Virus record (IMG/VR): IMGVR_UViG_3300033978_000217
Span: 1,818 to 65,817 of that record
Source: a virus
Lineage: Duplodnaviria; Caudoviricetes
DNA: 64,000 bases
Strand: one strand, 5' to 3'
How positions within the stretch are numbered: the first letter of the stretch is position 1; every line of letters begins with the position of its first letter. The notes below the pieces were generated by a model. The model did no database searches, had not been told where the DNA came from, and saw nothing but the letters and a program-made list of their open reading frames with translations. This document shows positions 19,844 through 56,848 of this stretch, one piece after another. Both the position numbers and the translations under genes were made by a program.

Positions 19844-19860
19844 TGCATACAATTTTTCAT

Positions 19861-39845: not shown

Positions 39846-40220
39846 TCACCCTTCTGCTGTTGATTCAGAGTCCATTCTTCTCTGAACTTTCTCTTTCTGT
39901 TCCAAAGCTTTTTCATCCTTATATTTTTTTATTAGTTGGACAATGTCGTAGTAAGCAAACCAGGGTAGTGTAGATATCTCTTCGATCAGGTCTTCAGCGT
40001 CATCCATTGCTCGAAGGTAGTAGTCACCACCCTCAATGTCGAAGAGGGCGGTGGCTAATACTTTGTATCTCTGCTCGGCAGCTTTAACGAACTGGTTACC
40101 CTTCATCTTCACCTCCTTCTCCCAAAAGGGTGGCCCAATTTGGTCGGAGATGTTTACAAATGCATTTGCGTGTAGCATGGATGCAATTATCTGATGCTTT
40201 TTATGTTCGTCTAGAATCAT
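39846..40220 (-). CDS. Hypothetical protein
   Basis: 124 aa, coupled to the exonuclease stop. Confidence 0.6.
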   Translation of the reverse strand: MILDEHKKHQIIASMLHANAFVNISDQIGPPFWEKEVKMKGNQFVKAAEQRYKVLATALFDIEGGDYYLRAMDDAEDLIEEISTLPWFAYYDIVQLIKKYKDEKALEQKEKVQRRMDSESTAEG

Positions 40221-40900
40221 CGGTTGCCTAACTTTTCAATTAAAAATTGTTTGTACTTAACTGCCATCTCAATAGCATTGTCCAAAATTTCTTTCGAATC
40301 TGATTGTAAATGTACAGGAATTATTGCTAACTTGTTCTTCCCATCCATGCGAGGATCGTAAGAAATGAACATACCCTCTTCCTTCCCGGCAACAATCATA
40401 TTCATTTGCAACTGCCACCAATAAGGTTTTCTCTGCTTGAATAGGTCATCCTCGTCTGCAATAAGAAGGTTCTGAACGTGGTTCTCGAAGTTGTACGGAC
40501 ACTTAATCTCAATCACACCGAAGCGTGAGCAGATACCATCGGGAGAGCCTCCTGCGTGGTCTCCGTAGGGGATAAACCCTACAGAGTCAACATGAGATTC
40601 CATCATCTCGGCATATATATTACAAGCCTCTGCCTCGTGTTCCACACCCCATTCCGTAGCCGCAGAGTTAGTGGTCTGCTCGATGCCAGTCATTTCCTCG
40701 GCAACCTTCGACATGATGTAAGACTTGGTAGTCTCAGACAACTCTCCGTTCTCTCTCGCTGCCTTCGTCTGAGGTTGAGTCATTAGTTTGTATATCTCTG
40801 ATGCGGTAAACTTACCAACACGAGCGTTGAACCATGCTTGTGAGCGTTGGTTAGACGCTTGTGCTTGTTCCTTTAGGATTTCGTTTAATAGATTATTCAT
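40217..40900 (-). CDS. YqaJ/lambda-type exonuclease
   Basis: QRSQAWFNAR.G.FTAS, WG..HE..A, GSPDG, IEIKCP and Y.WQLQ motifs. Confidence 0.9.
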   Translation of the reverse strand: MNNLLNEILKEQAQASNQRSQAWFNARVGKFTASEIYKLMTQPQTKAARENGELSETTKSYIMSKVAEEMTGIEQTTNSAATEWGVEHEAEACNIYAEMMESHVDSVGFIPYGDHAGGSPDGICSRFGVIEIKCPYNFENHVQNLLIADEDDLFKQRKPYWWQLQMNMIVAGKEEGMFISYDPRMDGKNKLAIIPVHLQSDSKEILDNAIEMAVKYKQFLIEKLGNR

Positions 40901-41759
40901 TGTCCCCTCCTTTAACTTTCTTACGAGCCTTCTCAATGATCTCTTTCTTCTGCTCCGGATCAATCATTACCGACTCATCAGACAAAGCAGTCTCAAGTTC
41001 TACCACGTTGGTAGTCTTCTCAAGTAAGCGGTCAATCTGTTCCTCGCTCATCTTCACATACTCAACGGTCTTGTACTCCTCGTTGTCGATAGAGATAGCG
41101 GTGTTAACCTTCTCAATCTTATCCAAGGCAAACGAAGACTTAGGGATAGACTTCCAACCTCTCTTCACAACGGTCTTACGAGCCATCTCTGCATAGTCAG
41201 TTGACCATGGGCCAACATCTTTGCGACCAGTCTCTGAGCGATTCTTGATAGCGTCAATTTGTGGCTTCCACATAACCTCGAACAAGGTCTCGTCATTGTG
41301 CAGTACAAAGATTGCGTAAACGGCAATGATGTCATCAACCTTGAAGGTCTCTCCCTTCGGCTTGTGGTTGATGCGAGGTGATGTACCTTGAACGATGTCG
41401 AAGTCATCTCCTCTGTAAACTACTCCCGAAGAAACCGACTTGATAATCCCAGTGTCAGAGATTAACTTAATCATCCCCTGGTATCCAGGCATGAGTTTAG
41501 CGTTGCCCTTGAAAGGAACGAGGTAAGCCAAGTTCATCACAGGGTTCAGAGACAACTTGGTCAATGCACAATTGTACACAGCCATTGCAACTGATTGTGG
41601 GTTAGAATTCGCTAACACTTGGTTGTTGTTAGCAGCTTGGATGGCGAAAGACATCTCTCTCATGAGGACTTCTTCTCCTCCCATCAGTTTAATCATTTCC
41701 TCTCTGCGAGGTTCGATGAACGGCATAACCGTCTTTGGTGAAATTGTTATGTTTGACAT
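40893..41759 (-). CDS. recT: RecT single-strand annealing protein
   Basis: LSLNP..AYLVPF, GYQGM and PW..DY.EMARKTV motifs; adjacent to the exonuclease. Confidence 0.9.
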   Translation of the reverse strand: MSNITISPKTVMPFIEPRREEMIKLMGGEEVLMREMSFAIQAANNNQVLANSNPQSVAMAVYNCALTKLSLNPVMNLAYLVPFKGNAKLMPGYQGMIKLISDTGIIKSVSSGVVYRGDDFDIVQGTSPRINHKPKGETFKVDDIIAVYAIFVLHNDETLFEVMWKPQIDAIKNRSETGRKDVGPWSTDYAEMARKTVVKRGWKSIPKSSFALDKIEKVNTAISIDNEEYKTVEYVKMSEEQIDRLLEKTTNVVELETALSDESVMIDPEQKKEIIEKARKKVKGGDNE

Positions 41760-41802
41760 AATTTATAAGTTTTCTTTATTAATGTTTTGCGAATGTAACA
41801 CA

Positions 41803-42093
41803 TTATTCGAAACCCTCCAAAACTTTTTTTGTAAATTTTTCTAATGTTAATAAGTAAGGTTCGTGTTCGAGTTTTATATCTGTACCCCATTTGCTGAAAA
41901 TCTGTTTGAGAATCTTCCTCCTCTCCCCTTGTGGAAGGTGTAAAAGAGCAAGGTCAAAGTACACATATGACTTTGGATCTTGTGGTATGCCCAGAGAGAT
42001 GCACATCTTGTTAACCCTCTTGTGCATAGTGTCGAGGACTAGGTATGTGTCTGCCCTCTTTAAATACTTTTGGCTACGAGAAGATTTTGCCAT
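41803..42093 (-). CDS. Hypothetical protein
   Basis: 96-aa ORF in an operon. Confidence 0.5.
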   Translation of the reverse strand: MAKSSRSQKYLKRADTYLVLDTMHKRVNKMCISLGIPQDPKSYVYFDLALLHLPQGERRKILKQIFSKWGTDIKLEHEPYLLTLEKFTKKVLEGFE

Positions 42094-42313
42094 TGTTTCT
42101 TGTGTCGGTTCTCTCTATAGATGACTTTATGTTCTTCCAATCGACAAGGTCTTGCTCCTCGAAAATCATCTTTCCATGAAACAAAGACATCATCCTCTTA
42201 ACCTTAGCCGGATCAAACTCTGGTCTGAATATCTTCAAAGCGTTTCTCGGATTTATGTCTTTCTCGGCAAAATAGGTGAGCCAATTTGCTCTATACTTGT
42301 GTTTCGATTTCAT
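42074..42313 (-). CDS. Hypothetical protein
   Basis: 79-aa ORF in an operon. Confidence 0.5.
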   Translation of the reverse strand: MKSKHKYRANWLTYFAEKDINPRNALKIFRPEFDPAKVKRMMSLFHGKMIFEEQDLVDWKNIKSSIERTDTRNNGKIFS

Positions 42314-42584
42314 GCTTTAAGCGTTCAATTTTCTCTCTAAATTCCTCCACCTCATCGCAGTATTCGAGTATCGAATTGATGACCTTCATGACCTTCTCCT
42401 GGTCTCTGATTGGCTTCTTTCTGCCCACAATGTCGCTCATCCAACGCTGTCCGTTACCACACTTATGGTTGATATAAGCCATGTTTAACACATCGGCATG
42501 AGACCTGCACGTCTTAATAAAGGACATCAGTAGGGAATCTCCAATAACCTTTTTCTGCGGCTTATTTTCTTGCGTATTGTTCAA
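42291..42584 (-). CDS. Hypothetical protein (possible HTH); start uncertain
   Basis: TTG-start ORF downstream of a canonical promoter. Confidence 0.45.
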   Translation of the reverse strand: MNNTQENKPQKKVIGDSLLMSFIKTCRSHADVLNMAYINHKCGNGQRWMSDIVGRKKPIRDQEKVMKVINSILEYCDEVEEFREKIERLKHEIETQV

Positions 42585-42628
42585 ACTATTGTTATGGTGT
42601 AAAATGTGTGCGAGAAGTTTTTACAAAC

Positions 42629-42659
42629 CAAATGTACTATAAATGCCAATAAAATCAAA
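42629..42659 (-). promoter_or_regulatory. Canonical Bacteroidota promoter for the recombination operon
   Basis: Minus strand TTTG-N19-TACATTTG. Confidence 0.7.
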
Positions 42660-42790
42660 ACGCCGCATCGTCTGACTTGTCACAGAAAGTGATAGTAGTT
42701 TTTCTGAAAACGCCGGGGGATCAGGCGAAATTATGATCAGGAGGACCAGGATCAATTCAAATAAGCACTAACCCTCTGAAAATTAGGCAC

Positions 42791-42825
42791 AAAAAAAAAG
42801 GATGCTGAATTAACAACATCCTTTT
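42791..42825 (-). terminator. Intrinsic terminator ending the early operon
   Basis: Minus strand AAAAGGATGTTG-TTAATT-CAGCATCC followed by T9. Confidence 0.8.
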
Positions 42826-42842
42826 AAGATTTTCCGTAGTGG

Positions 42843-42992
42843 TTATTGCAGGTTACCTATCGTGTATACAATCGGCAGTATGGTCATCGTGCCTAACATT
42901 AGTGGTATTGAATGTGTCATCCACGCTATGAAGAAGAGGATGATTCCGAGAATGCCTAGCACCGTCAAGATGATGTCAATTGTCCTTCTCAT
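42843..42992 (-). CDS. Small two-TM membrane protein (49 aa)
   Basis: MRRTIDIILTVLGILGIILFFIAW..; ATGA-coupled to the upstream stop. Confidence 0.6.
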   Translation of the reverse strand: MRRTIDIILTVLGILGIILFFIAWMTHSIPLMLGTMTILPIVYTIGNLQ

Positions 42993-43207
42993 ATTTCCAC
43001 CAATGATATGTCTTCCCCAGCAATTCTGATTGCCGTCCAAATGTGGTGCATTGTTCCTTCGTTAGTCAAGGCAATGTTCAATACATCTTGCGCTTCCTCA
43101 TCAGAGCAGTCAAAAATATCTTGAACATCTTCTACGCTCCAAAGGTTATCTACGAAGTAACCATTCTTTCTAAGCGTCTCTTTCGCTTGTTTGATTTCGT
43201 TTGTCAT
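42989..43207 (-). CDS. Small acidic early protein
   Basis: 72 aa, LWSVEDV..SDEEAQDVL. Confidence 0.65.
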   Translation of the reverse strand: MTNEIKQAKETLRKNGYFVDNLWSVEDVQDIFDCSDEEAQDVLNIALTNEGTMHHIWTAIRIAGEDISLVEI

Positions 43208-43215
43208 CTCTTTTA

Positions 43216-43659
43216 TTATTTAAGGTCATTAATCAATTCTATATCTTCGGGAGAGTACTCTTGTTCGTTATCCCAATCCCCATCCCAGTGTTCGCATATG
43301 TATTGCGGAATTAAGGCACATCCGTCAAACAATTGCTCTACTGATATGTCTGCTCTGCCGAATGTCTCTATTTGCTCAACCATTGCATTACCGAAATCTC
43401 TTATCTCGGATGCATCAGAGAAATACCAATCAAGGAATTTAGATGCCTTGATTACATTCAAGGTCTTCATTCGAATTGGTTTCTCTTCCGAGTAATCTGA
43501 TATCGTCTCGGGAAGTTGACAAAGTTTAGTGATGCTCTTCAAGTCTTCGAAGACTTCTGAATCCTCGCTGAATAGTTTTTGTTCAGTCAAGTTGATCAGG
43601 ACTTGCAATGCAAGTTGATTGATAATTTGCAAATGTTTTTGCGTGATTTCTTTCTCCAT
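43216..43659 (-). CDS. Acidic early protein
   Basis: 147 aa; AAAACAATG start context. Confidence 0.65.
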   Translation of the reverse strand: MEKEITQKHLQIINQLALQVLINLTEQKLFSEDSEVFEDLKSITKLCQLPETISDYSEEKPIRMKTLNVIKASKFLDWYFSDASEIRDFGNAMVEQIETFGRADISVEQLFDGCALIPQYICEHWDGDWDNEQEYSPEDIELINDLK

Positions 43660-43668
43660 TGTTTTAAA

Positions 43669-44154
43669 TTATTTATTGATTTCGATTAATGTTCCGTCCG
43701 CTTGTTCTTCGTAGTAGTAGTCACTATCTTCAATGTCCCATTCAGTATAGTAGTACTCGTCTTGGGCATAGGCTTCTTCTAGAAGAAATTCGTCAGATAG
43801 TTCGTTGTACTCGTCAACATTTCGGTCTCTTAACCACTTAATCAAGTCAGATGTGTTCACGAAGTATGCTTCTCCATCGTTGCAACAATATCCTCTATCC
43901 ATCCCCTTCCCAGTTGCAGAATCTTTTCTCGCCCACTTGATTTTTACATCTTTGAGCATATTGTATTGCTCCAAGGTAAGTTCCATATAGTTCGCCCATC
44001 CTTGTGCTTCCTCTAGCAATGTGTTTGGATGTTCAGACGAATCGTAAACATATAAACCACCTTCTCCTAGGGATATCATTTGAACAACGGTGTTATGGTC
44101 ATTGTCCCACATATGACTAACTACTTCCTCTCCGAATAAATAATAGAATTTCAT
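43669..44154 (-). CDS. Acidic early protein (DNA-mimic candidate)
   Basis: D/E/Y-rich C-terminus; AAAACAATG start. Confidence 0.65.
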   Translation of the reverse strand: MKFYYLFGEEVVSHMWDNDHNTVVQMISLGEGGLYVYDSSEHPNTLLEEAQGWANYMELTLEQYNMLKDVKIKWARKDSATGKGMDRGYCCNDGEAYFVNTSDLIKWLRDRNVDEYNELSDEFLLEEAYAQDEYYYTEWDIEDSDYYYEEQADGTLIEINK

Positions 44155-44166
44155 TGTTTTATGTTT

Positions 44167-44577
44167 TTAGTTGTTTGGATTTAATGCGTTACCTAGGATT
44201 GCGAAGAGAGATTCGTTCTGCTCTCCTTCAGTCAGTTTTAATTTGATTACTCTCTCTGCGTAGAAGATGTGATGACGATTGTACAAGTCAATCAATCCTT
44301 TTCTCCAAAGAGAGATGTCTGGGATAGTTGCTCTAAAGTAAAAGCCGTTGACCATCTTGCAGAGAACATCCGTATAGATTGCTTCCTCCGTAATCTCAAA
44401 ATCGTCTTGGTTATAGTCTGCTCCAATGTGGGCATTCAATGAGAGCAAAAGCTCGTCCATCGAATTGAATTCCTCGTGTCTCTCAATTGAATGAGATTCT
44501 ACTTGTTGTTGTTCACCATGCTCGTAAGAGTCTAGTGTTGTGATGCACGAATGACGTGTGATTCTAAATTTTTCCAT
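44167..44577 (-). CDS. Acidic early protein
   Basis: 136 aa; AAACAATG start. Confidence 0.65.
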   Translation of the reverse strand: MEKFRITRHSCITTLDSYEHGEQQQVESHSIERHEEFNSMDELLLSLNAHIGADYNQDDFEITEEAIYTDVLCKMVNGFYFRATIPDISLWRKGLIDLYNRHHIFYAERVIKLKLTEGEQNESLFAILGNALNPNN

Positions 44578-44598
44578 TGTTTCTGATTGTTTTATATA

Positions 44599-45120
44599 TT
44601 ATAATATTTTGTTTCTTACTTGTTCTATAAAATATTTATCTGAACAAAGTGATTGGATGTCGCTAAATTTTTGTTTACTTCCAAGATATTGGTATGACAA
44701 TCCGCTAGGAATACTAGAGCAATTTCCGTATTCATCCTCAATTATTGTATCCGCACGTTTATATACATCAATAGTTATGTGATTTTCGTGATGACCAATT
44801 AATTTACTTTCTGTTCTACCTATCAAAATACTATTGCATTCGTAGTGACGATTCTCTTTTCCCATCTTTTGAATTACTGCAAAAGGCAAGTCTTTTTCCA
44901 ATAAGGAGATGATTCGATAAACTTCTGCTTCGGCAAGTTTATTCCAATTCTCTTTTGCAATTAGGACATTTGCTTCGAATTCTTTTTTCTTTCGATTCAA
45001 CATCTGCAATTCGTCTGCATTGATTAGATTGAAAGATTTTGATGTGCTGAACTGCTCGTTTACTTTAGCGAATGAATCTGACATATTCGCAATGATTTGT
45101 TGTTGTTGTTTTGTCAACAT
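44599..45120 (-). CDS. Hypothetical early protein
   Basis: 173-aa ORF in the operon. Confidence 0.65.
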   Translation of the reverse strand: MLTKQQQQIIANMSDSFAKVNEQFSTSKSFNLINADELQMLNRKKKEFEANVLIAKENWNKLAEAEVYRIISLLEKDLPFAVIQKMGKENRHYECNSILIGRTESKLIGHHENHITIDVYKRADTIIEDEYGNCSSIPSGLSYQYLGSKQKFSDIQSLCSDKYFIEQVRNKIL

Positions 45121-45149
45121 AATTACTAGTTTTAAATTTATTGATTTGA

Positions 45150-45470
45150 TTAAATGAATGTACCGTTACCTAAATTATCGAATGTCTCGCTCTCCGAGAA
45201 TGATAGTAAAGAGGAATCTTGGATGTGTTCTTCTTCCTCTAGGAATACCAAGAATGTCTCGCATTCGAATTCAACATTCTCTCGCGTTTGTCCATACCGA
45301 AATGACTCGTCCTTCGAATAATATCCGTCAATCCAAATGATGACGAATGTCTTGTCATCCAAAACGAAGTCCCTATCCAATTCGATGTGACCAGTTCTTT
45401 GGTCATTTAGATAATCGCCTAGGATGACTTGCACCCTAGCGATTTCGTTTGTATTCAGTTCGATGTTCAT
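45150..45470 (-). CDS. Acidic early protein
   Basis: MNIELN start just after the upstream stop; E/D-rich. Confidence 0.6.
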   Translation of the reverse strand: MNIELNTNEIARVQVILGDYLNDQRTGHIELDRDFVLDDKTFVIIWIDGYYSKDESFRYGQTRENVEFECETFLVFLEEEEHIQDSSLLSFSESETFDNLGNGTFI

Positions 45471-45471
45471 A

Positions 45472-46530
45472 TTATTTATCAAATTTGTATTCGTCATTTG
45501 TGATGTCGGTAATTACTTTAATGTTGTGTGAGTAGAAAAGTTCGTCAGCAAGGTAATCATCGTCACCATCTGCTGACTTGCGAAGAAGGTCAAACAAGAA
45601 CTTTGCTTGTCCGTTAGCCAAGGCAAGTCTCTCAAGCAATTCCTCTTTGCTGATATCCTCCTCGTGAATGACTGACCAAATTGCATCGTCAACATTCATC
45701 TTCTTCGCTAATACCTTTTCAGTAAGCTCTAGGTTAGGCAAGAAGAATTCTTTTTTCAAATCGTAGTGAGGATTTAAATCGTCACCTTGGAAGTAGTTGA
45801 CTGCAACAACATCGTTATCGTTTTCATCTCTCCATTCAGATATCCATCTATCTGACTCTTGAACAAATCTCCATTCGTGATTAACCTTAACAAAACGATT
45901 CTGATTCACATTGTATATATTATCATTCTCACAATCCCAAACACAAATCTCCTCGTCTCTATTGAACGCTTCCGTATAGGTGCAATCGTGTTGGAAGATT
46001 CTACCTTTCCAATCGAATGTCAAACCGTCCCCATCCACAATCATCAGATAGTCTCCGATGGTGAACTTCTCCCCTTTCGGCATCATCTCTTTTAGATTGT
46101 CGAATATCTCAACCCAATTGATTCTATTGAAAGCAATCAGTCCAAATATGTTAGCCAATGTCCCTCTTTCGAATGTGTCGTATCTGAAGAAGTTAGATAG
46201 TTCAAGCGGACTATTTTTCGTGCGGATATTACTGAAGGCAGTCTCCAAAACATCTCTATCGTTGTGGATATGAGAAATCATTGTGTATGTCTCAAGGTTA
46301 GTGTATCCGTTAACCGTTTTGTCTCCCCCAGTCGAATTGGATTCCTCAACTTTCATCGTGTTAATCAATTCTTCGATGTCTCGTTGTGCTAGACTGCATT
46401 CGTGTTGCATACTTCCCCCTTCTTCAATCTCATCAATTGCTAGTTGGACAAAGTCCCAAATTTCTTCTTTCAATGTTGGATTTTCGTTAGCCATTTTCAG
46501 CGCGTACTTTTTTAATTCAGATAAATTCAT
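45472..46530 (-). CDS. Multi-domain acidic early protein
   Basis: 352 aa; contains an NGYTNLETY motif recalled from phage early proteins. Confidence 0.65.
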   Translation of the reverse strand: MNLSELKKYALKMANENPTLKEEIWDFVQLAIDEIEEGGSMQHECSLAQRDIEELINTMKVEESNSTGGDKTVNGYTNLETYTMISHIHNDRDVLETAFSNIRTKNSPLELSNFFRYDTFERGTLANIFGLIAFNRINWVEIFDNLKEMMPKGEKFTIGDYLMIVDGDGLTFDWKGRIFQHDCTYTEAFNRDEEICVWDCENDNIYNVNQNRFVKVNHEWRFVQESDRWISEWRDENDNDVVAVNYFQGDDLNPHYDLKKEFFLPNLELTEKVLAKKMNVDDAIWSVIHEEDISKEELLERLALANGQAKFLFDLLRKSADGDDDYLADELFYSHNIKVITDITNDEYKFDK

Positions 46531-46567
46531 TTTCTTAAAGTTTTAAAATTATTGATTTTGATTTTGA

Positions 46568-46843
46568 TTAGTTTTCTTCCTCTTCATAAGATGCGAATCC
46601 GAGATCCACAAGAACATCTAGTATGCAAGTCTCGTTGACTTCTAGAATCTCTGCAATGTCTCTTACTTCCATATCGTAAAGCATAAACATATTGCAGTCC
46701 CTCTGATAGTTCTGGAATTCGTTCTCTAGATAGTCTCTAACTGACTTCTCTTGCTGATAATCCATACGCATAATTCTGCGATTGATGTCTGAACAAATGT
46801 CATTAACGGCATTCGTTACATTGTCTTGATGTGTTGTCTTCAT
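46568..46843 (-). CDS. Small acidic early protein
   Basis: 91 aa, ends YEEEEN. Confidence 0.65.
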   Translation of the reverse strand: MKTTHQDNVTNAVNDICSDINRRIMRMDYQQEKSVRDYLENEFQNYQRDCNMFMLYDMEVRDIAEILEVNETCILDVLVDLGFASYEEEEN

Positions 46844-46855
46844 TTTATTAAAGGA

Positions 46856-47464
46856 TTAAAGGATTGAATTAGAAAGTCTCAATTTTGATTTTGCTCCAAG
46901 TCTATCTATAGAGCGAAGGTAGGATAGTAAAAAGTCAACGTCTTCGTGCGGAAGTGTTGTGAAAATACCGTCAAAACGTAAGTCAGCAACGTACTCATCG
47001 TCACATTCCCAAACAACGTCTCCGTTGCAGTCTTCAACGTAGCAGAAATACCTTCCGTTGACTTCTTCAATCTCGCTCACAACAAGCACGAATGAATTGT
47101 AGTCTTTCTCCTCTCCGATATCAGATGCAGTCCAATAGGCATTCCATTCTTCAAGTTCGTCTTCATGGACTAGCCATAAGTCTCCGTTCTCCTCTTGCGT
47201 GAGATAGAATAGTTCGTTGGTAGATTCTCTACGAATCTCGTTGTAATGAGAAAGGATGTCGCTCCAATTCTCCCAATAGAATTCGTTGTCTTGTCCTTTA
47301 GCAAGTTCGTTCAACATCTGAACTAATACTAAACTAGTGGACGTGAAACGATATGAATGCAGATTCTCGTTCAACATATCCTCTGCGAATTCTTGTGGGA
47401 TGTAAGTCCCTCTATGACCATCTAGAAGGAAGATGGATTTCTGAAGTGAAAGTGTACTTTTCAT
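46856..47464 (-). CDS. Acidic early protein
   Basis: LLDGHRGTYIPQEFA..YWENWSDIL..GDLW. Confidence 0.65.
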   Translation of the reverse strand: MKSTLSLQKSIFLLDGHRGTYIPQEFAEDMLNENLHSYRFTSTSLVLVQMLNELAKGQDNEFYWENWSDILSHYNEIRRESTNELFYLTQEENGDLWLVHEDELEEWNAYWTASDIGEEKDYNSFVLVVSEIEEVNGRYFCYVEDCNGDVVWECDDEYVADLRFDGIFTTLPHEDVDFLLSYLRSIDRLGAKSKLRLSNSIL

Positions 47465-47518
47465 TGTCTTGATTTTATTGATTTATATATTCCCCAGTTA
47501 AAGTGTATTTTGAAAATT

Positions 47519-47707
47519 TTAATGTCCTCTCTCCAATGTATACGAATTGTAAGCGACATCGCAGAGAATCAGTTTCTCGTTAGTCTTGAAGTCAATTGCT
47601 CCTTGCGTCTCTCCGTACTCATATGAAACGGATGTTGGTTTAAGTTCTCTCTTTAGGCATTCAGCGTTAAAGATGTCTTGGTCTAAAAAATAAATGTGTG
47701 CGTACAT
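47519..47707 (-). CDS. Small early protein
   Basis: 62 aa; AGACAATG start. Confidence 0.55.
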   Translation of the reverse strand: MYAHIYFLDQDIFNAECLKRELKPTSVSYEYGETQGAIDFKTNEKLILCDVAYNSYTLERGH

Positions 47708-47725
47708 TGTCTGAAAATTATTAGT

Positions 47726-47890
47726 TTATGAATTGATTGATTTGGTTATCTCTTCGGAGATGATGTCTTGAACTTCGAATTCTGACTCATCTTCACTATC
47801 TATGCAATTAGGCACAAAACCTAGTTCAACAAGTCTATCAGTTATGCGGATTGCAATGTCTCTGATTTCGTCTTCAGTAAATTTCTTCAT
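47726..47890 (-). CDS. Small acidic early protein (54 aa, absent from the ORF track)
   Basis: MKKFTEDEIRDIAIRITDRLVELGFVPNCIDSEDESEFEVQDIISEEITKSINS*; AGACAATG start. Confidence 0.65.
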   Translation of the reverse strand: MKKFTEDEIRDIAIRITDRLVELGFVPNCIDSEDESEFEVQDIISEEITKSINS

Positions 47891-47900
47891 TGTCTTATGA

Positions 47901-48332
47901 TTATTTGTTTAGTGAATGAAATTCGATTGTCTCAATTAGGTATTCTCTCTCGTCCTCTCTCACATATTCCCAATCTCCGTTACCATTGTCGAAGGACTCG
48001 CATATTTCAGCAAGTTGACCAATTGAAGTCACTTCTCCCCAACACCATCCGCAATCGAATGCGTAATGTCTCTCTCCGTTAACATCGAAGTAAACACCAC
48101 TACTGATAACTACCTTCTCCCCATCGTACATCTCATACAATACACCATCCTCGAACGATAGGATTGATTCCGAGTCTTCGTTTTGGAACATCCAATCTTG
48201 GTCGAATATCTTCTTAATCGTTGTCTCGCTGAAGTAAGGGACTGACCATCCGTTCCAATACATATTTGAACTATAACCTACGAAGGTGAAGTCGGTGTTT
48301 CCACCATCAATTGAAAATACTGCTTTTTTCAT
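47901..48332 (-). CDS. Acidic early protein
   Basis: YWNGWSVPYF..GWCW; AGACAATG start. Confidence 0.65.
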   Translation of the reverse strand: MKKAVFSIDGGNTDFTFVGYSSNMYWNGWSVPYFSETTIKKIFDQDWMFQNEDSESILSFEDGVLYEMYDGEKVVISSGVYFDVNGERHYAFDCGWCWGEVTSIGQLAEICESFDNGNGDWEYVREDEREYLIETIEFHSLNK

Positions 48333-48410
48333 TGTCTTAAATTGTTAAATTATTAGTGTTTACGCATTCCCCAGGAAAAGCGCATTTTGAAATTTTTGAT
48401 TGTCTTTTCT

Positions 48411-48569
48411 TTACTTTTTCAGTCTTACGATTAAGATGATTGCTGATGCAAGGAACACAACGAATGCTCCAAAACACAAGTAAACATTTTGTAGGCACAT
48501 TGAGATTAAGATGACAAGTGTGCTATAAATCATTAAGAAGAATAGAACGATTTCGATTTTTTTAAGCAT
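48411..48569 (-). CDS. Small two-TM membrane protein, first gene of the early operon (52 aa, absent from the ORF track)
   Basis: MLKKIEIVLFFLMIYSTLVILISMCLQNVYLCFGAFVVFLASAIILIVRLKK*. Confidence 0.6.
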   Translation of the reverse strand: MLKKIEIVLFFLMIYSTLVILISMCLQNVYLCFGAFVVFLASAIILIVRLKK

Positions 48570-48590
48570 TTGATTTATGTATTAAGTTTA

Positions 48591-48652
48591 GCAGAATGTG
48601 TAGACTCGAACTACACGATGCATATTGTATATACACCTCTCCAAGCATTCTA
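48591..48652 (-). ncRNA. tRNA-like element lacking a D-arm
   Basis: Acceptor-like stem TAGAATG/CATTCTG, T-arm TGTAG-TTCGAGT-CTACA and a 9-bp middle stem. Confidence 0.5.
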
Positions 48653-49219
48653 GAATGTGTTAGTGTTACGTCAACAAAGGCATACTTTCCATATGTTATT
48701 CCCTTGGTTCTCGCTGATGCGATTCAATCTATGATGTCAAAGAACTACGGACTTTATACGCTTTTCCGTTATGTGCGTCCCAACTTTACAACTTTCACTT
48801 CCTCTATTAAGTTTTTACTCCGTTCGTATATTCTACTCGTTGTACTCAAGGATGTTGGTTTCGCCTCTTACTATTAATATCAGTTTGAATATTGCTCTCT
48901 ATAATTCACGCGATAGATATTCCCATATGTATGCGCTTATAACTATTCAGTTGCGGAGCAAAACCAATCTTTCAATTTTCGTAATTCCCGTTGGAATCGG
49001 ATACAAACATCGTTATAATTTTTAGATGAAATTCACATAATTGCAACAAATTTCATCATTCTTGGAATCCTAAAGGTAAAAGCCTGAAAATTAGCATTTT
49101 AACCCACAAAAAAAAGTGTGCATTTTGACTGTCGGAGTGCATTTTCAAAGGAAATTGACCATATGAAAGGCATAAAAAGGATTTAGGATGCACCATAAAT
49201 TCTCCGCTTATTTGATGTG

Positions 49220-49880
49220 AAATTGTGCTGAATGAATTGTTGGTTGAATTGTGCCTATATGAAATGTTGCTGACCTTTCGACAAATGCCTTGTGTGAGTT
49301 ACGAACATAGTTACTAACAACGGAAGCGGAGATGGTGCTAGTTAAATTGAGGGACATATGCAATAGGTTTGCTGAATAGTTACTAACAAAGTTATTCACA
49401 TATAATATTACGGCACGACTGCTGACCTTACGCGATTCGTGACGGCAGTAGAGCAACGATATTGTGCTGACCATAGTAAACCATCACTATTCGAATTGCG
49501 TTGAATTTTGCCTATTGTATGGAAGCGAGGGAAGGAATCGAATTGCTGAAAGCCTGATCGATTAGGTTTCGCCTGGCGGGTGGGGTCGCAAATCCTGATC
49601 TCCTGATCGGCCCGGTGGTGGGATCATGGTTGGTAAACCCCCTTCCGCTAACATCTCGCCCCCTTTTAGTTTTGGATTGGGTTATCCCTTGATTCCCTTT
49701 TTACGGTTATATAAAGATACGAAATGTATTGTAAAGATTATAATAATATGGGCCGAAATGCGGTTTGTCCACCGTTGAGTATCCCTATTTTGCTGAGTTT
49801 GTAATTTTTGGAATGGGGGGGGGTGGTGTCGCAAAATGCGTTTCGTGCATAATGCTGATCAGGTTGTGGGGACCAGGTCT
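49220..49880. repeat. Non-coding repeat/GC-rich region (candidate genome end, pac or origin)
   Basis: Seven TGCTGA, two TAGTTACTAACAA, five GATC, G-runs and an A-tract/T-tract at the point where transcription diverges. Confidence 0.5.
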
Positions 49881-49976
49881 AAAAAAAATTTTTTTTCTGG
49901 AGTGTCGACTATGTGTCTACAGTTGGGTAGTGGTACTAACCAGTTGGTTTTATATATTTGTAAAAAAAATATAGTC

Positions 49977-50333
49977 GTGAAAACAAACAAGAACAAAAAC
50001 GCTCGTATGGAGAAGAGGGCAGATCGTTTGACTGCTAAGGCTAACAAGATCACTGGCAAGGGGTCTACCACGCTTAACCTGGTTTCTGGTAACAAGAGTG
50101 CCACTATTAAAACTTCTGCTAACACTAAGAAGTCTGACCGTTTACTTAACCGCGCTAGTGTGTTGAGGGGGAAGGCTATCTCAGACCCTCTTGAGAAGGC
50201 GAGATATATTTCAAACTTACCAGAGGGTACTTTGAAGAAGAAGTTGACTAAGCAAGGTCCTATAGACAAGATTCATGCTAGAAGGGTTGTGAAGAAGTTT
50301 AACAACTCTCCCATTGGTCCTATAAAGCGTTAA
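49977..50333 (+). CDS. Small Lys/Arg-rich protein
   Basis: GTG start 16 nt after TATATTTG (49953). Confidence 0.6.
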   Translation: MKTNKNKNARMEKRADRLTAKANKITGKGSTTLNLVSGNKSATIKTSANTKKSDRLLNRASVLRGKAISDPLEKARYISNLPEGTLKKKLTKQGPIDKIHARRVVKKFNNSPIGPIKR

Positions 50334-50336
50334 GTC

Positions 50337-50652
50337 GGCTACAGATTGTAACCACCTTGATGGTGTCAACAAAATGGTCTTAATTCGGAAAACTTCCGAG
50401 TTTGGCCATGTTTTGTTACGGAGTTTGGCAAGGGGTTGGGGATTATTTTCCACGATAAGCCTTATTCTGGTGACAATTATCCACATTAGTTTGTCTCAAA
50501 AGTTTACTATAATTGCGACAGATGTGGTTTATAACATCTAACTCATATTAAAGTGTGGGATCTCTGAACGTAAGGCTATATTTTGACTTTAATGACTGAG
50601 GAGTCATACTATAACGTGACTTATGTGTCACAATTTTTCGAGTTTTTGTGAC
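50337..50652. promoter_or_regulatory. Array of different imperfect palindromes plus a DnaA box
   Basis: About a dozen abutting inverted repeats between convergent genes; TTATCCACA at 50477. Confidence 0.5.
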
Positions 50653-50666
50653 TTGTAAGGGACTTT

Positions 50667-51143
50667 TTATTTCTTTCTACTCGCCTTGACTCTTTTCTTG
50701 TCTGCCTTGAACTGTTCGGACTGGGTGTAGAGCTTACCAGCCTTCTTGTCCTCTCGGTACATTTTGTTAGCAGACTTCTTTGCGTCACCTTCCTTCCACT
50801 TCTTTCCGTAGGCGAACTTCTCTGCTCTCTTGGCTGACTTGAATCCGACTACCTCTCCTCTCTTCAATGCCTCATCGTATGCCTCTTGAGGTTTATCCTC
50901 AAGGTTAGTCCATGTCTTCCCACCATTGTTAGGGAAGATGGTTGGGTTTACTTCGTATGGTCTCTTTCTGTTTCCTGTTTCTCCAGAGGAGAGGAGGACA
51001 GTTGAGGAAGGTCCTTGTGCGTTCTTCATGGGAGTAACCCCTTTTCTCATGTCTCTGAGTGCCTTTACCTTGCGAGAGACGATGAGTCCATCCTTGGTTT
51101 TCGGTTTCTTCGGTCCTGGGTTGAAGTAGTCTTGTGCTTTCAT
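50667..51143 (-). CDS. Basic protein
   Basis: 158 aa, K-rich termini, core PTIFP..AYDEA..GEV..F..AEKFA.G.WK. Confidence 0.65.
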   Translation of the reverse strand: MKAQDYFNPGPKKPKTKDGLIVSRKVKALRDMRKGVTPMKNAQGPSSTVLLSSGETGNRKRPYEVNPTIFPNNGGKTWTNLEDKPQEAYDEALKRGEVVGFKSAKRAEKFAYGKKWKEGDAKKSANKMYREDKKAGKLYTQSEQFKADKKRVKASRKK

Positions 51144-51155
51144 GTTGTAAATATA

Positions 51156-51180
51156 AAAAAAAAAGCCTCTTGCGAGGCTT
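51156..51180 (-). terminator. Intrinsic terminator
   Basis: Minus strand AAGCCTC-GCAA-GAGGC followed by a long T-run. Confidence 0.75.
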
Positions 51181-51199
51181 ATTCATTGCGAAGTATTTT

Positions 51200-51595
51200 T
51201 TAGAAAGAGTTAGTTCCTTTTCTAGCTTCTCTTCTTACTGCACGAGCAAACTTCATCCCATTTCCAGTAGCCTTTGCACTTTGAACTTTTTCAGTGTCAT
51301 ATTTTTTAGGGTTTCTGTTATATTCTTTTAAAGCTTGACTTACCTTCTCATTTTTCTTCATGGCAATTTTAGAGTTCCCAAGTTTTCTATCTACCTTGTT
51401 CTCTAGCATTTTACCTGCAAGTGATCCGCGATCTTTAAATGATTTTTTTTCAGATATTACTCCACCGCTTTTAGAGTATACTGTACGAGTTTTAGATACC
51501 GCCTCATTTCCTGAAGCGTTTCTGTTTACTACTACTTTTCTACCTAAAACGTTTTTTCTTGATGTGGTAGTTTCTCTTTTAACTTTGATGCCCAT
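51200..51595 (-). CDS. Lys/Arg-rich protein (RKNxLGR family)
   Basis: Start MGIKVK; promoter TTTGTATATTTG at 51627-51638 on the minus strand. Confidence 0.65.
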   Translation of the reverse strand: MGIKVKRETTTSRKNVLGRKVVVNRNASGNEAVSKTRTVYSKSGGVISEKKSFKDRGSLAGKMLENKVDRKLGNSKIAMKKNEKVSQALKEYNRNPKKYDTEKVQSAKATGNGMKFARAVRREARKGTNSF

Positions 51596-51641
51596 GGTTG
51601 TTTTGTATTTTATTATTAATAATACACAAATATACAAATCA

Positions 51642-51842
51642 TCACTTGTCTCCCAAAATTTCTTTGAGTTGAGAGAAGATATCTGTCTGCGCCTGTCCCC
51701 AGAAGAAATCGCAAGTTCCGTCCTCCTTGATTGGAGGCTTTTCAAAGTAGGCTTGAGCGTACTCATTAATCGGTGCTGTAAATCTATGGCACTTCTCTTT
51801 GTGGGGACAATTTGTCCCTTCGCACATTGTTATATCACTCAT
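51642..51842 (-). CDS. Small Cys-rich protein
   Basis: MSDITMCEGTNCPHKEKCHRF..CDFFW. Confidence 0.65.
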   Translation of the reverse strand: MSDITMCEGTNCPHKEKCHRFTAPINEYAQAYFEKPPIKEDGTCDFFWGQAQTDIFSQLKEILGDK

Positions 51843-52233
51843 CTCCAAATTTTTGTTTAATTTCATAGTTGTCACCCTCATCACATTTCTCACACATGGC
51901 AAGTTGATTATTGCCACACGAGTCGAATCCAAACTTACACTCCAACCCACTTTGTTTTGTTTCTGAGTGGAATACCCGGAGTCCCCACATTAGGTTATAC
52001 ATCGCTGCTGATCTTCTTGCGTACTCTTTGGAGAGTCCCTTCTCCTTTTGGAAGAGGTCTACCATCCAGTCCATCCATTGCTGTTCCTGTTCGGGAGTCA
52101 TGTCCCAGTCGTAATACCATTGGTCCTTACGTCCGAGTACATCCTCGTAGGTTACGTTGTGTCCTGCTATCGAGAACATCTTGTCTACTATTTCCTTGAT
52201 GATTTCCTGATCGGTCTTTCTCTTGCGTCTCAT
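51835..52233 (-). CDS. Hypothetical protein
   Basis: 132 aa with C-terminal Cys pairs. Confidence 0.6.
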   Translation of the reverse strand: MRRKRKTDQEIIKEIVDKMFSIAGHNVTYEDVLGRKDQWYYDWDMTPEQEQQWMDWMVDLFQKEKGLSKEYARRSAAMYNLMWGLRVFHSETKQSGLECKFGFDSCGNNQLAMCEKCDEGDNYEIKQKFGDE

Positions 52234-52451
52234 TATTCAAATGTATTTGTGTAGTATTCCTCAAATTGCTTCTCGAAGATCTTTTTTAGGCGAGGGACTT
52301 TAGTCACATGAGCGAGGTACAGGTCCTTCATCTCCTGCTTATGCATCTCCCTTACCTCCTTGAGTACTGCGTTCCACTCCCACTTATCTCTTGGGCATTC
52401 CCATAGTATTTCGAAGAGGATATCTACCGAGGTTTGCTTCTTGTTACTCAT
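52233..52451 (-). CDS. Hypothetical protein
   Basis: KQTSV..EMHKQE..EEYYTNTF pattern. Confidence 0.6.
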   Translation of the reverse strand: MSNKKQTSVDILFEILWECPRDKWEWNAVLKEVREMHKQEMKDLYLAHVTKVPRLKKIFEKQFEEYYTNTFE

Positions 52452-52693
52452 CTGATTTTATCTCTCATCCATTTAGCACCTTCTATAAACCCAAATCTTT
52501 TTGAATCATTAAGAAATGTTTCCAAAGCAACATCATCTATCTCCTCATCCGTTGGTAGTTCTATTGGGGTTAGAGAAGCAATGAAGTCATCATAAAATAT
52601 AGGTTTATAGTCTTCATTATCTAATGCTAAAGCATCTATATAAGCAGTAGTCCACGCTTTCATAATTTGCTCTTCTGTGTATAGCTTACTCAT
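52448..52693 (-). CDS. Hypothetical protein
   Basis: LPTDEEI..GFIEGAKWMR. Confidence 0.6.
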   Translation of the reverse strand: MSKLYTEEQIMKAWTTAYIDALALDNEDYKPIFYDDFIASLTPIELPTDEEIDDVALETFLNDSKRFGFIEGAKWMRDKIR

Positions 52694-53075
52694 TGCTGTT
52701 TATTTTAATTGTTCCTAAAGTTCCACTTGCTAATGCTGGAGAGGAATAGACATTGTTCCAGTCGTTGTCTATTGCTAGTCGGTGCATTATAGTCCTAGAA
52801 ATTTGATAGCAGTTACCAATGAACTCGGTGCTGTTGTATCCATAGCTTTGATTGTCTACAAAGTCGGGGAGAAGAACTCTTTTAGCCTGTCTTAGCAATT
52901 CCTCAACTTCATCACGTCTTTTCATCTGCTCATCAAATGGCAAACCTCTCAGCATTTCTTCAATAGTATGTCTTAACTGCCATTGACCAGAAGCAAATCG
53001 AGATACATCTTCCATGCAGTCTGCAATCAATCTCATTTGATCTTCAGATAGTTCAATCGTGTACTTTTTGCTCAT
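52686..53075 (-). CDS. Hypothetical protein
   Basis: 129 aa; AAAACAATG start. Confidence 0.6.
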   Translation of the reverse strand: MSKKYTIELSEDQMRLIADCMEDVSRFASGQWQLRHTIEEMLRGLPFDEQMKRRDEVEELLRQAKRVLLPDFVDNQSYGYNSTEFIGNCYQISRTIMHRLAIDNDWNNVYSSPALASGTLGTIKINSNE

Positions 53076-53109
53076 TGTTTTTAGTTTTAAAGGTTACACC
53101 CGACTTTAG

Positions 53110-53220
53110 CTTGGTGTTGTGTTCAAGCACTACCTTAGCAATCTTAAACAGCTACTTGCAATGACTTGTACTTCGTCTGCAAGGGACTCTCAAGTGTGCG
53201 TTGAGTTCGTCTACACCAAG
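53110..53220 (-). ncRNA. Candidate multi-branched structured RNA
   Basis: An 8-bp closing stem CTTGGTGT/ACACCAAG encloses 3-4 hairpins in an intergenic gap; strand inferred from flanking genes. Confidence 0.45.
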
Positions 53221-53342
53221 ATAGTACAGCTGGTACGATTCAAGAGGCTTTGAGGTACAATTATTAAAAAATGCTGTTAGTTGTACTCAAGGGTAACATA
53301 CACCACATCTATTATGAGGAGACGCTCTGTGTGGCTGCATTT

Positions 53343-53471
53343 TTATTTTTCCTTCTTATTCATTTGAGAGAGTACCCACGTCAAAACCTCTAACTTAATC
53401 TCATCAGAGATATCTTCGCTAAAGGTCTTGCGGAGCATTCGCTCATAAATCAGTTGCTTCACTATCTTCAC
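53343..53471 (-). CDS. Small hypothetical protein (42 aa, absent from the ORF track)
   Basis: GTG start, MKIVKQLIYERMLRKTFSEDISDEIKLEVLTWVLSQMNKKEK*. Confidence 0.4.
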   Translation of the reverse strand: MKIVKQLIYERMLRKTFSEDISDEIKLEVLTWVLSQMNKKEK

Positions 53472-53715
53472 TAGAAGGTGCTGTTTTTATTGCGTTAAGG
53501 AAAGCCACAGCCTCTTGTTGGAACTCCGGATCTTCTCTCATAGCGTTTAGAGCATCGTTTGCAACAGAGGTCAACTCTTGAGTTAGTCCTGTGAAAGATT
53601 CTAGAATTTCCTCGTTGGTTAACTCCATGTTGAGTGCCAACAACTCCGTTAACAACTTGTGACACGAGAGAGCAAATTCTTGCATGGTCTCGTTCGTTAC
53701 TCTTAATTTTTGCAT
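53443..53715 (-). CDS. Acidic helical hypothetical protein
   Basis: Start MQKLRV; promoter TTTGTATATTTG at 53733-53744. Confidence 0.6.
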   Translation of the reverse strand: MQKLRVTNETMQEFALSCHKLLTELLALNMELTNEEILESFTGLTQELTSVANDALNAMREDPEFQQEAVAFLNAIKTAPSSEDSEATDL

Positions 53716-53785
53716 TTTGTGTATTATTTTCACAAATATACAAAAGACATTAAAATAACAATTAATAAGTTTTCAACAATACGGA

Positions 53786-53947
53786 TTATAGATTTGGAGG
53801 AAGTTTGTATTCCTCTCCGCTGTCCTTTGCCTTTTGATAGTCGTTGACAATGTCACAGAGTTTGACTTTCTTCCCAACCTCGGGACATCCAAGTTGGTGA
53901 GCGTTGTAGTACCCACAGATAGGGCATTTATACTTTGGCTTTTTCAT
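53786..53947 (-). CDS. Small Zn-finger-like protein (53 aa, absent from the ORF track)
   Basis: MKKPKYKCPICGYYNAHQLGCPE..; ATGA-coupled. Confidence 0.55.
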   Translation of the reverse strand: MKKPKYKCPICGYYNAHQLGCPEVGKKVKLCDIVNDYQKAKDSGEEYKLPPNL

Positions 53948-54093
53948 GATCCGCAATATAAGCACGTTTCGTCATCATCCTCAATAGAATGTGCCTCATT
54001 ATTGATACGGATTGCTTCCATTTCGATTTGAGCGTCTGTCCACTCTGGGTGGAAGGCTCTGATTTGTGACTTGAGGAATAGTAACTCGTTCAT
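53944..54093 (-). CDS. Small protein ending in CxxCGS (49 aa, absent from the ORF track)
   Basis: MNELLFLKSQIRAFHPEWTDAQIEMEAIRINNEAHSIEDDDETCLYCGS*. Confidence 0.6.
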   Translation of the reverse strand: MNELLFLKSQIRAFHPEWTDAQIEMEAIRINNEAHSIEDDDETCLYCGS

Positions 54094-54113
54094 AGACTTA
54101 AATTTTAGGTACA

Positions 54114-54149
54114 CAAAGATACGGAGAGAAATATATTTCTATATCTTTG
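54114..54149. promoter_or_regulatory. Divergent pair of TATCTTTG -7 elements
   Basis: CAAAGATA at 54114 (-) and TATCTTTG at 54142 (+). Confidence 0.6.
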
Positions 54150-54169
54150 TTTAGATAAAAAATTACACT

Positions 54170-54731: not shown

Positions 54732-54767
54732 TAAAAAAATAGTATATTTGTGTAAATATTTAAAGAG

Positions 54768-56000: not shown

Positions 56001-56003
56001 ACT

Positions 56004-56636: not shown

Positions 56637-56637
56637 C

Positions 56638-56835: not shown

Positions 56836-56848
56836 AAAACATTAAACA

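Follow-up and report, generated by a model that had tools for sequence, protein, structure and literature searches.

Region-limited avoidance of restriction sites has been proven experimentally for a few cultured phages only, namely T5-like phages and the T7-like Murciavirus. The R-M sensitivity of these phages is set by sites in the region that is injected first, according to the available portions of two reports (PMC10644984, PMC12455610). In one of these, as far as its available text goes, conjugative plasmids' leading region appears as first-entering DNA that has few R-M targets and many anti-defence genes (PMC12455610). Here we describe the same signature, on the evidence of sequence only, in a family of lake phages that have not been cultured. 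The signature is sharp-edged and unusually broad, with at least 12 words, asymmetric ones included.

The window analysed is a 64,000-nt stretch, positions 1,818-65,817 of the IMG/VR record IMGVR_UViG_3300033978_000217 (Caudoviricetes). The contig was assembled as a circle, its ends overlapping by 127 bp. The host was probably a freshwater member of the Bacteroidota, as suggested by an SD-like motif in 4 of 61 genes and by the closest primase-helicases, found in Tenacibaculum, Riemerella and Flavobacterium phages. The major capsid protein had no match among phage records. Rfam and tRNA scans of the 64 kb returned nothing.

The depleted interval and its transcription unit

The initial annotation had described positions 42843-49500 as poor in eight words (GATC, CATG, AGCT, CCGG, GGCC, GGNCC, GCNGC and CCNGG), and each of its per-word counts was reproduced. 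CCGG, GGCC, GGNCC and GCNGC were absent, CCNGG occurred once (48371), and GATC (43594, 46603), AGCT (44450, 45725) and CATG (44517, 47164) occurred twice each. GAATTC, TCGA and GTAC, which the annotation had described as not avoided, had 8, 28 and 12 copies. The low-site stretch was wider than first drawn, spanning 42751-49555, with the nearest outer sites of the eight words at 42750 and 49556. Within these limits the eight words together had 7 sites, compared with 59.4 ± 6.5 expected and a minimum of 40 in 1000 synonymous shuffles, which drew on the region's own codon usage and are conservative. Each remaining 1-kb bin of the window held 5-27 such sites. The G+C content of six 1-kb bins in the depleted region (0.355-0.392) did not differ from that elsewhere (window mean 0.387). 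The depletion stayed under the codon and composition correction that had been proposed with the annotation, and it persisted under Markov as well as codon-aware controls.

GATC (2 sites, 19.7 expected), AGCT (2, 13.6) and CATG (2, 13.7) were each as low in none of the 1000 shuffles. The five G+C-rich words, with 0-1 sites against 1.7-3.1 expected, were as low in 5-14% of the shuffles and are singly non-significant in this genome; they were at or near zero in the corresponding unit of all 13 relatives examined. The strongest depletion had been missed: non-palindromic ACAG/CTGT, with 2 sites against 30.6 expected, ranked first in depletion among 136 4-mers merged with their reverse complements. 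Also missing from the first list were CAGG/CCTG (4 against 13.2) and the partially depleted ACGT (9 against 20.1) and CTNAG (1). Palindromes made up 4 of the 8 most depleted 4-mer classes, compared with 16 of all 136. The asymmetric words were low in both orientations, an indication that the DNA is recognised as a double strand. Other words were enriched in the unit relative to the density outside it (AATT, 87 against 45.6; TCGA, 29 against 11.9; CGA, 1.8-fold). The purge in 42751-49555 is confirmed as real, and it exceeds its first description.

Dense sites just outside both borders, as first noted, were found again. The downstream patch (42713-42750, 38 bp) has 7 sites (CCGG, three GATC, GGNCC and two CCNGG) and sits upstream of a RecT/YqaJ/RusA operon. 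The upstream patch (49556-49625, 70 bp) has 10 (four GATC, two CCNGG, GGCC, GGNCC, CCGG and CATG). Its sequence is variable among relatives, yet site-rich in those that carry a methylase.

The depleted interval coincides with one minus-strand unit, consisting of an upstream block, a leader, 14 small ORFs and a terminator. The conserved non-coding block (49560-49900) lies directly upstream of the interval; an A8T8 tract forms its start, and within it are C-runs and an AT-rich, promoter-like core. Its mean column identity was 76% in a 10-sequence alignment that included L035, a relative without the methyltransferase, and RNAalifold gave no covariation support, with 1 compensatory pair of 31. Inside the block is a candidate promoter (49743-49771; TGGACA, 17 nt, TATTAT; 10/12), followed by TAnnTTT-like boxes at ~49728 and ~49719. 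A promoter consensus scan overall gave 20 matches against 25.6 expected, which is not above chance. The leader (48570-49555, ~1 kb) has no convincing ORF, carries six (G/T)TCAGCA repeats at 49226-49549 and folded no better than shuffles (z +1.46). The first ORF (48411-48569) encodes a 52-aa hydrophobic protein with a pI of 9.5. In the relatives L035 and L049, ~0.9-1.3 kb precede the first ORF of at least 50 aa, and a comparable small hydrophobic ORF is found near the unit start.

Twelve minus-strand ORFs of 54-352 aa follow within 42989-48332 (47901-48332, 47726-47890, 47519-47707, 46856-47464, 46568-46843, 45472-46530, 45150-45497, 44599-45120, 44167-44577, 43669-44154, 43216-43659 and 42989-43207), 11 of them with a pI of 4.07-4.94. 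The last ORF (42843-42992) encodes a 49-aa hydrophobic protein, and the unit ends in an intrinsic terminator (42796-42825), in which a T-run comes after a stem of 12 pairs. Among minus-strand ORFs outside the unit, 1 of 23 had a pI below 4.5, compared with pI values of 4.1-4.9 for 11 of the 12 unit ORFs longer than 52 aa.

For the unit proteins, the sole PHROGs matches were phrog_9945 and phrog_21544, neither of known function, and Pfam gave nothing above the cut-off. The unit DNA matched none of 50,697 phage records in near and distant searches. The 43216-43659 protein resembled ArdA (PF07275) at E = 0.097 and 13.7 bits, below the cut-off of 27. This identity was not upheld: a PDB search with a profile built from 13 homologues yielded no ArdA, and the AF2 model (mean pLDDT 72.9) had no Foldseek match at E ≤ 0.001. 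ArdA was absent from the Foldseek and VIA lists, and the best VIA-wide match (Z 6.0) covered a helical hairpin only. A search of the ESM Atlas with the 352-aa protein gave no usable match. Family, profile and fold searches thus revealed no known anti-restriction family among the unit proteins.

The trough among relatives

A DNA-pattern search for relatives matched 17 stretches, and the anchor protein (51200-51766) had no relatives in viral contigs. The trough was present in the corresponding unit of all 13 related IMG/VR loci examined, also where the gene content of the unit was different. The flanks of the relatives were 87-98% identical, whereas the unit was only 72-82% identical, or replaced or largely non-homologous; it is the most variable part of its genome arm.

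The sets of avoided words were lineage-specific and differed even between genomes with flanks 97-98% identical. In the window, the unit avoids CATG (2 observed, 28 expected) but not CTAG (24 observed, 18 expected), whereas the unit of L001 avoids CTAG (1/12) and ACGT (2/16), and CATG less so (15/35). A second group of relatives avoids only GATC, CCAG/CTGG and 5-mers.

Neutral evolution was simulated in 300 runs by placing the same observed substitutions at random, without codon-awareness. The alignable unit parts of all seven relatives compared had 9-28 sites, against 32-77 under random placement of the 407-888 substitutions, and each count was below the minimum of the 300 simulations. As judged from these counts, the avoidance is maintained by ongoing purifying selection and not by chance inheritance.

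Explanations of the avoidance

We consider it reasonably probable that the minus-strand unit at 49.9-42.8 kb is an early host-takeover or anti-defence operon under localised restriction-site avoidance. What the sequences show is the purge and where it ends, its match to one unit, its conservation and the lineage-specific word sets; an early timing, a staged entry, an anti-restriction function and the identity of the selecting enzymes are inferred. The sharp edges at the conserved upstream block and at the terminator were counted in favour of this reading. The avoidance reading of the initial annotation holds in so far as the purge is kept by selection in a single, well-delimited unit of early appearance, with its conserved upstream block, terminator, hypervariable acidic ORFans and a trough that recurs in divergent relatives.

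The selecting agents would be DNA-cutting defences met by the phage lineage, recognising mainly 4-5-bp type II targets and some asymmetric words. By analogy with the T5 FST and T7-like leading regions, the DNA of the unit would be exposed and transcribed before any phage counter-measure, and would be safe only without targets. The remaining genome, with its ordinary word density, might be shielded later by the unit products or by its later entry. The acidic unit proteins are candidate DNA-mimic-like inhibitors. Counted against this reading were the strongest depleted word, the 4-bp asymmetric ACAG/CTGT, which to our knowledge no restriction enzyme recognises, and the searches for anti-restriction families, which gave no match.

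The same selective logic might also apply without staged entry, which we regard as unlikely. The whole genome would then enter together, and this unit alone would be exposed or essential at the start. Virion proteins injected along with the DNA might cover the rest, or cuts there might be mended once the unit products and RecT/YqaJ/RusA have acted. It fits this possibility that the purge tracks the borders of the transcription unit and not a demonstrated genome end, that the recombination operon lies directly downstream of the unit, and that the genome has a 3844-aa virion-type ORF. However, Pfam and PDB searches with this giant ORF, conceivably a virion RNA polymerase, gave no match and identified no DNA-protecting internal protein, and all known cases of region-limited avoidance elsewhere involve staged entry, within the available portions of the reports (PMC12455610, PMC10644984).

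Contig word depth, which is not a copy number, was similar over the unit and its flanks in three DNA runs. At ~48.8-50.2 kb, contigs had 1.3-1.9 times the word depth of their neighbours (three runs). Because contigs break at 48776-48796, the raised depth was attributed to a conserved block common to strains that co-occur but differ in their units, and it was not taken as a terminal repeat. Assembled contigs of public runs, compared over 40000-54999, showed no molecule ends. The Flavobacterium 'elemo' phages, cultured distant relatives, were deposited with varying start points, so that fixed ends are not established for such phages. In the RNA-library run X21, the flanks of a relative were present, and nothing at ≥90% likeness was found over 43000-49499.

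The genome also encodes a C5 cytosine DNA methyltransferase (58378-59898, minus strand; 506 aa; Pfam PF00145, 1.4e-59). Its catalytic motifs can be aligned with M.HhaI over residues 5-167 and 424-490, and its variable region is ~255 aa long, compared with ~85 aa in M.HhaI. This region has piecewise matches to other, uncharacterised phage methyltransferases only. Cassette indels distinguish the 441-, 466-, 506- and 545-aa enzyme forms among the relatives, with four to seven cassette-like modules. The cassettes may be target-recognition domains, which would make the enzyme multispecific. In a scan of genome contigs, its homologues were spread thinly over MAGs from many phyla and did not point to any host.

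The initial annotation had offered avoidance of the phage's own methylation as a second reading. For the core words it is not needed, since four relatives without the C5 methyltransferase (G003, G004, G005 and G008) keep the trough. G003 and G004, the two searched for them, are also without three amino-methyltransferase families. The trough in GATC, CCGG, CCNGG and GCNGC is retained in G003, G004 and G005. In G008 the methylase slot is emptied to ~280 bp, and ACAG (11/41), CAGG (4/21) and GATC (2/42) are still low. Counting the eight words as a union had suggested that methylase-less relatives have no trough; this was rejected, as CATG and AGCT counts mask a core trough that is clear once the words are separated.

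For the extra words purged in the lineage that carries the methylase (ACAG/CTGT, CAGG/CCTG, AGCT, CATG and others), avoidance of own methylation is a minority possibility, to which we give a low probability. These words would be targets of the modular enzyme, and a unit without 5-methylcytosine would escape type IV nucleases until inhibitors are made. The wider purge occurs in all five known methylase carriers (G000, G001, G002, G006 and G012), and the three genomes of the other group, all without methylase, are purged of core words only. The number of cassette-like modules is close to that of the extra words, the strong CATG purge (2 observed, 28 expected; 1/23) is limited to two genomes with one extra enzyme cassette, and every purged word contains a cytosine. 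Against this, a core trough is found without any detectable methylase, and G008 is purged of ACAG and CAGG as well as GATC despite its emptied slot. L001 and L010 are purged of CTAG and ACGT without a matching unique cassette, the contrast between methylase and purge is hardly more than a single split between clades, and the enzymes matched by the variable region are uncharacterised. If true, it would imply a two-layer strategy in one genome, with the bulk methylated and the leading unit stripped, and the missing words would read out both the uncultured host's defence repertoire and the sequence specificities of the phage's enzyme.

A compositional accident, or a foreign module whose donor had a different oligonucleotide signature, without site-specific selection, is largely refuted and very improbable: the unit does deviate in several unrelated words (AATT, TCGA, CGA) and is the most variable part of its arm, but the depletion is word-specific at equal G+C, is not removed by codon shuffling, is kept across differing gene content and against ~20% divergence, and its word sets differ between near-identical genomes.

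If localised restriction-site avoidance in an early anti-defence operon is the right explanation, troughs could show where uncultured phages carry the anti-defence operon that is exposed first. Around a dozen uncharacterised acidic proteins would become counter-defence candidates, and the troughs would be a fossil record of the restriction repertoire in hosts that have never been grown.

Comparison with known systems

Bacillus phages of the SPR, phi3T and SPbeta type have multispecific C5 methyltransferases with tandem cassettes in the variable region. The enzyme described here is likewise a C5 methyltransferase with an enlarged variable region and cassette-like modules that vary between related phages; its variable region had no detectable similarity to theirs in the phage collection. 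With its varying cassettes, the enzyme provides a naturally occurring series in which target-recognition modules might be matched to motifs.

With the T5 FST, in the available part of its description, the unit appears to share the layout of a several-kb block of small pre-early genes, mostly of unknown function, with repeat-rich non-coding DNA alongside; T5 survival depends on this block being without R-M sites, which the remaining genome carries (PMC10644984). In T5, however, a ~10-kb terminal direct repeat contains the FST, and entry has been demonstrated to proceed in two steps, whereas the unit described here is known from an assembly. Contig word depth, not being a copy number, gave no sign of a 2x region. 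The non-coding repeat region is located at the promoter-proximal end, unlike in T5, and there is no sequence similarity. Conjugative plasmids differ in entering single-stranded by conjugation.

Compared with T7-like phages, the genome architecture is different and no Ocr or ArdA homology was found. For Murciavirus the evidence is experimental and bears on a single type I motif, whereas here at least 12 short words are purged together, as judged from sequence only. What would be shared with the T7-like leading region (Murciavirus, T7 gene 0.3 Ocr), as the available portion of the report describes it, is a hypervariable early region with anti-defence functions, in which the location of a motif decides on restriction (PMC12455610), and the acidic unit proteins would fit the theme of Ocr-like DNA mimics.

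Extent and anatomy of the purged unit

In the initial annotation, the region at 42843-49500 had been described by eye as nearly free of restriction and methylation words (CCGG, GGCC, GGNCC, GCNGC, CCNGG, GATC, AGCT and CATG) that are common outside it. The observation was confirmed, with all word counts reproduced by our recount, and it was extended to exact interval limits, additional words and related viruses. The purged interval comprised positions 42751-49555, where the eight words occurred seven times in total. The six 1-kb bins that fall within these limits had 1-2 copies each, compared with 5-27 in the other 58 bins. Its G+C content was the same as in the rest of the window. GAATTC, TCGA and GTAC were unavoided, as initially stated, and so were CTAG, AATT and TGCA.

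A maximal-order Markov model of the region itself predicted 30.9 GATC, 28.6 CATG and 12.2 AGCT, each of which was observed twice. The depletion persisted in a codon-aware control, in which 1000 shuffles exchanged synonymous codons within the ORFs of the region and left proteins and codon usage unchanged. The shuffled sequences had 59.4 ± 6.5 copies of the eight words (minimum 40), compared with the seven observed, and the observed levels of GATC, AGCT and CATG were never reached. Taken singly, the five G+C-rich words gave a weak signal in this genome, as the region makes little use of their codons.

When all 136 reverse-complement-merged 4-mers were scanned without bias, using the same shuffle, the most depleted word was the non-palindromic ACAG/CTGT (2 vs 30.6 expected, z -6.6), missed by the initial annotation. 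GATC ranked third, CATG fifth, AGCT seventh and ACGT eighth, and CAGG/CCTG was found 4 times (13.2 expected). The rest of the window had 452 copies of ACAG/CTGT. Both its orientations were depleted in the unit, which places the constraint on double-stranded DNA rather than on the transcript. We know of no enzyme for a 4-bp asymmetric word of this type.

The purged interval corresponds to a single unit on the minus strand, preceded upstream by a conserved non-coding block of 340 bp (49560-49900, minus strand; 76% mean column identity in an alignment of ten related sequences). The block contains TGGACA-17-TATTAT (49771-49743, minus strand), only a candidate promoter, since the promoter scan overall was not above chance. 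The upstream border is a 70-bp patch (49556-49625) crowded with the same words that are missing downstream. It is followed by a minus-strand leader of ~1 kb without a convincing ORF, in which six (G/T)TCAGCA repeats are spaced 40-100 bp apart (49226-49549, minus strand). Their number and sequence differ between relatives, and no unusual structure was found in the leader RNA. The unit has 14 ORFs, the first and last encoding small hydrophobic proteins. Eleven of the 12 inner ORFs had a pI of 4.07-4.94, compared with a pI below 4.5 in only 1 of 23 minus-strand ORFs outside the unit. These acidic proteins are candidate DNA mimics or other inhibitors; no tie to any known family was found for them. 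A 12-pair hairpin with a T-run (42825-42796, minus strand) ends the unit, and between it and the recombination operon lies another site-dense patch (42713-42750).

The sequence GATCAGG...GGACCAGG occurs exactly twice (0 expected), once per unit border (49857-49877 and 42735-42750). GAYCAGG copies flank the candidate promoter on both sides and in both orientations, with further positions at 42719, 49553, 49594 and 49602. One of the two GATC remaining inside the unit is part of TGATCAGG (43593). The GATCAGG-type copies at the borders and promoter may be operator-like sites.

Directly upstream of the conserved block, ~770 bp (49893-50666) are missing in the related loci L004 and L022, and in one contig from a lake metagenome position 49893 is linked to 51157. 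The stretch is an indel hot spot adjoining the presumably early unit.

Word sets and selection among relatives

Forty-eight related IMG/VR loci were retrieved with RecT, and the comparison was limited to those reaching upstream. In these, the flanks were 87-98% identical to the window and the unit only 72-82%, with indels and swapped segments; in a second group, the unit was largely non-homologous. A trough in the unit was found in all 13 relatives analysed. GATC was purged in all (1-5 observed vs 7-42 expected), and CCGG, GGNCC, GCNGC and mostly CCNGG were at or near zero in every unit.

Other words were lineage-specific. Group A (the window, L001, L004, L010, L020, L022, L023 and L039) additionally purged ACAG/CTGT, CAGG/CCTG, AGCT and CATG, with partial purging of CGAC, ACTC and ACCC. 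Group B (L024, L042, L035, L049, L038 and L041) purged CCAG/CTGG and ACNGT instead, with CATG, AGCT, CTAG and ACGT at expectation or above. Within group A, CATG was avoided in the window (2 observed, 28 expected) and L004 (1/23), and CTAG was unavoided in both (24/18 and 10/16). L001 and L010 avoided CTAG (1/12 and 3/14) and ACGT (2/16 and 3/16), and their units had 15 and 10 copies of CATG, respectively. Such differences among near-identical genomes would be the expected product of host-strain-specific restriction repertoires.

The eight words were unusually dense in a downstream stretch of the related locus L005 (about 9000-14000), at 33-44 per kb or three times the normal level; this segment may be foreign or chimeric.

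The purge is kept by selection, not by inheritance. For seven group A relatives, the alignable unit parts (1978-4847 bp) had 17-21% substitutions, and equal numbers and types of substitutions were placed randomly on the window sequence 300 times. The simulations gave 32-77 copies of the purged words, compared with 9-28 in the real relatives, and all seven fell under the minimum of their own simulations; the effect size is approximate, because coding constraint is ignored. Combined with the shifts in word set and gene content, the result largely excludes a frozen accident, as well as one foreign module as the source.

The phage methyltransferase

A C5 cytosine DNA methyltransferase of 506 aa is encoded at 58378-59898 on the minus strand. 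Its C5 motifs are at residues 5-167 and 424-490, with ~255 aa between them, compared with ~85 aa in M.HhaI. Relatives (L053, L054, L071 and L074) have forms of 441, 466 and 545 aa, which differ in the variable region by entire cassettes, each about 20-60 aa long; separate parts of this region match other uncharacterised phage methylases. In this layout, the enzyme resembles the multispecific ones of Bacillus phages, and it may likewise have several targets. The amino-methyltransferase families PF01555, PF02086 and PF05869 were not found in genomes G000-G004.

The methylase was present in five group A genomes (G000, G001, G002, G006 and G012). Scored at its slot, it was cleanly gone between conserved flanks in four genomes; the other no-match records include fragments ending short of the slot. 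In three group B genomes (G003, G004 and G005), other DNA takes its place between the flanks (0.8-1.0 kb), and the core trough was kept. G008, the genome of L039, has only ~280 bp at the slot and a group A-type purge (ACAG 11 observed/41 expected, CAGG 4/21, GATC 2/42). The trough is therefore independent of the methylase. The methylase-bearing lineage purges more words, and the tie to these extra words is at best loose. The initial interpretation is partly supported. Of its two options, localised avoidance of cleavage is the better supported; staying unmethylated by the phage's own enzyme is not needed for the core words, given the trough in these four genomes, and is a less likely explanation of the extra words.

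Genome layout and known precedents

The source record, of which the window is bases 1818-65817, is a single virus contig of 65,817 bp. Its first and last 127 bases (1-127 and 65691-65817) are identical, hence its IMG/VR class 'direct terminal repeats'. This identity is the assembly overlap of a circular path, typical of assembler k-mer overlap, so the deposited ends are uninformative on physical ends.

Structural-looking ORFs occupy 145-37659 on the plus strand, including a weak SU10-type capsid match and, in the late arm, a giant ORF of 3844 aa (19843-31377). The latter had no Pfam family and no PDB sequence match, and one 420-residue stretch had 28% identity with a protein labelled 'structural protein' in Flavobacterium elemo phages. 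It is comparable in size with the virion RNA polymerases of N4-like phages, and nothing here supports identity. Directly 3' of it in the late operon, a ferritin-like protein is encoded (PF00210, 4.4e-21; 31411-31911, plus strand), an unusual cargo in a phage. The plus-strand arm opens with a gene for a DUF3127 protein (2.3e-22; genome 337-675, L052), located at the junction from which this arm and the replication genes diverge.

The minus arm encodes an HTH protein, a primase-helicase, a DnaA_C-like protein and the C5 methyltransferase (63.7-57.6 kb), and RecT, a YqaJ-type exonuclease and RusA (41.8-38.2 kb). Most of an island of four plus-strand ORFs without known function (55157-57187) is missing in the otherwise syntenic G003, which retains only 54735-55121.

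The closest cultured relatives were Tenacibaculum, Riemerella and Flavobacterium phages (34-37% identity for the primase-helicase). Only 4 of 61 ORFs had an upstream Shine-Dalgarno-like word, and upstream regions were 48% A, which we take to fit a Bacteroidota host. Public runs with the sequence were mostly labelled as lake-water metagenomes.

The best-supported reading is localised target avoidance in the earliest-functioning part of the genome: defence targets would be avoided where DNA is needed before any counter-defence exists. In T5-like phages, one report describes type I and II sensitivity only with sites in the first-step-transfer region (PMC10644984). For Murciavirus phages, another describes that type I restriction depends on where the motif lies in the first-injected region, and by that account such avoidance is sensible only given defined ends and staged entry (PMC12455610). 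The phenomenon is of a known kind, restriction avoidance in a leading or early region; here it occurs in a new family of uncultured phages and is unusual in its breadth and lineage resolution.
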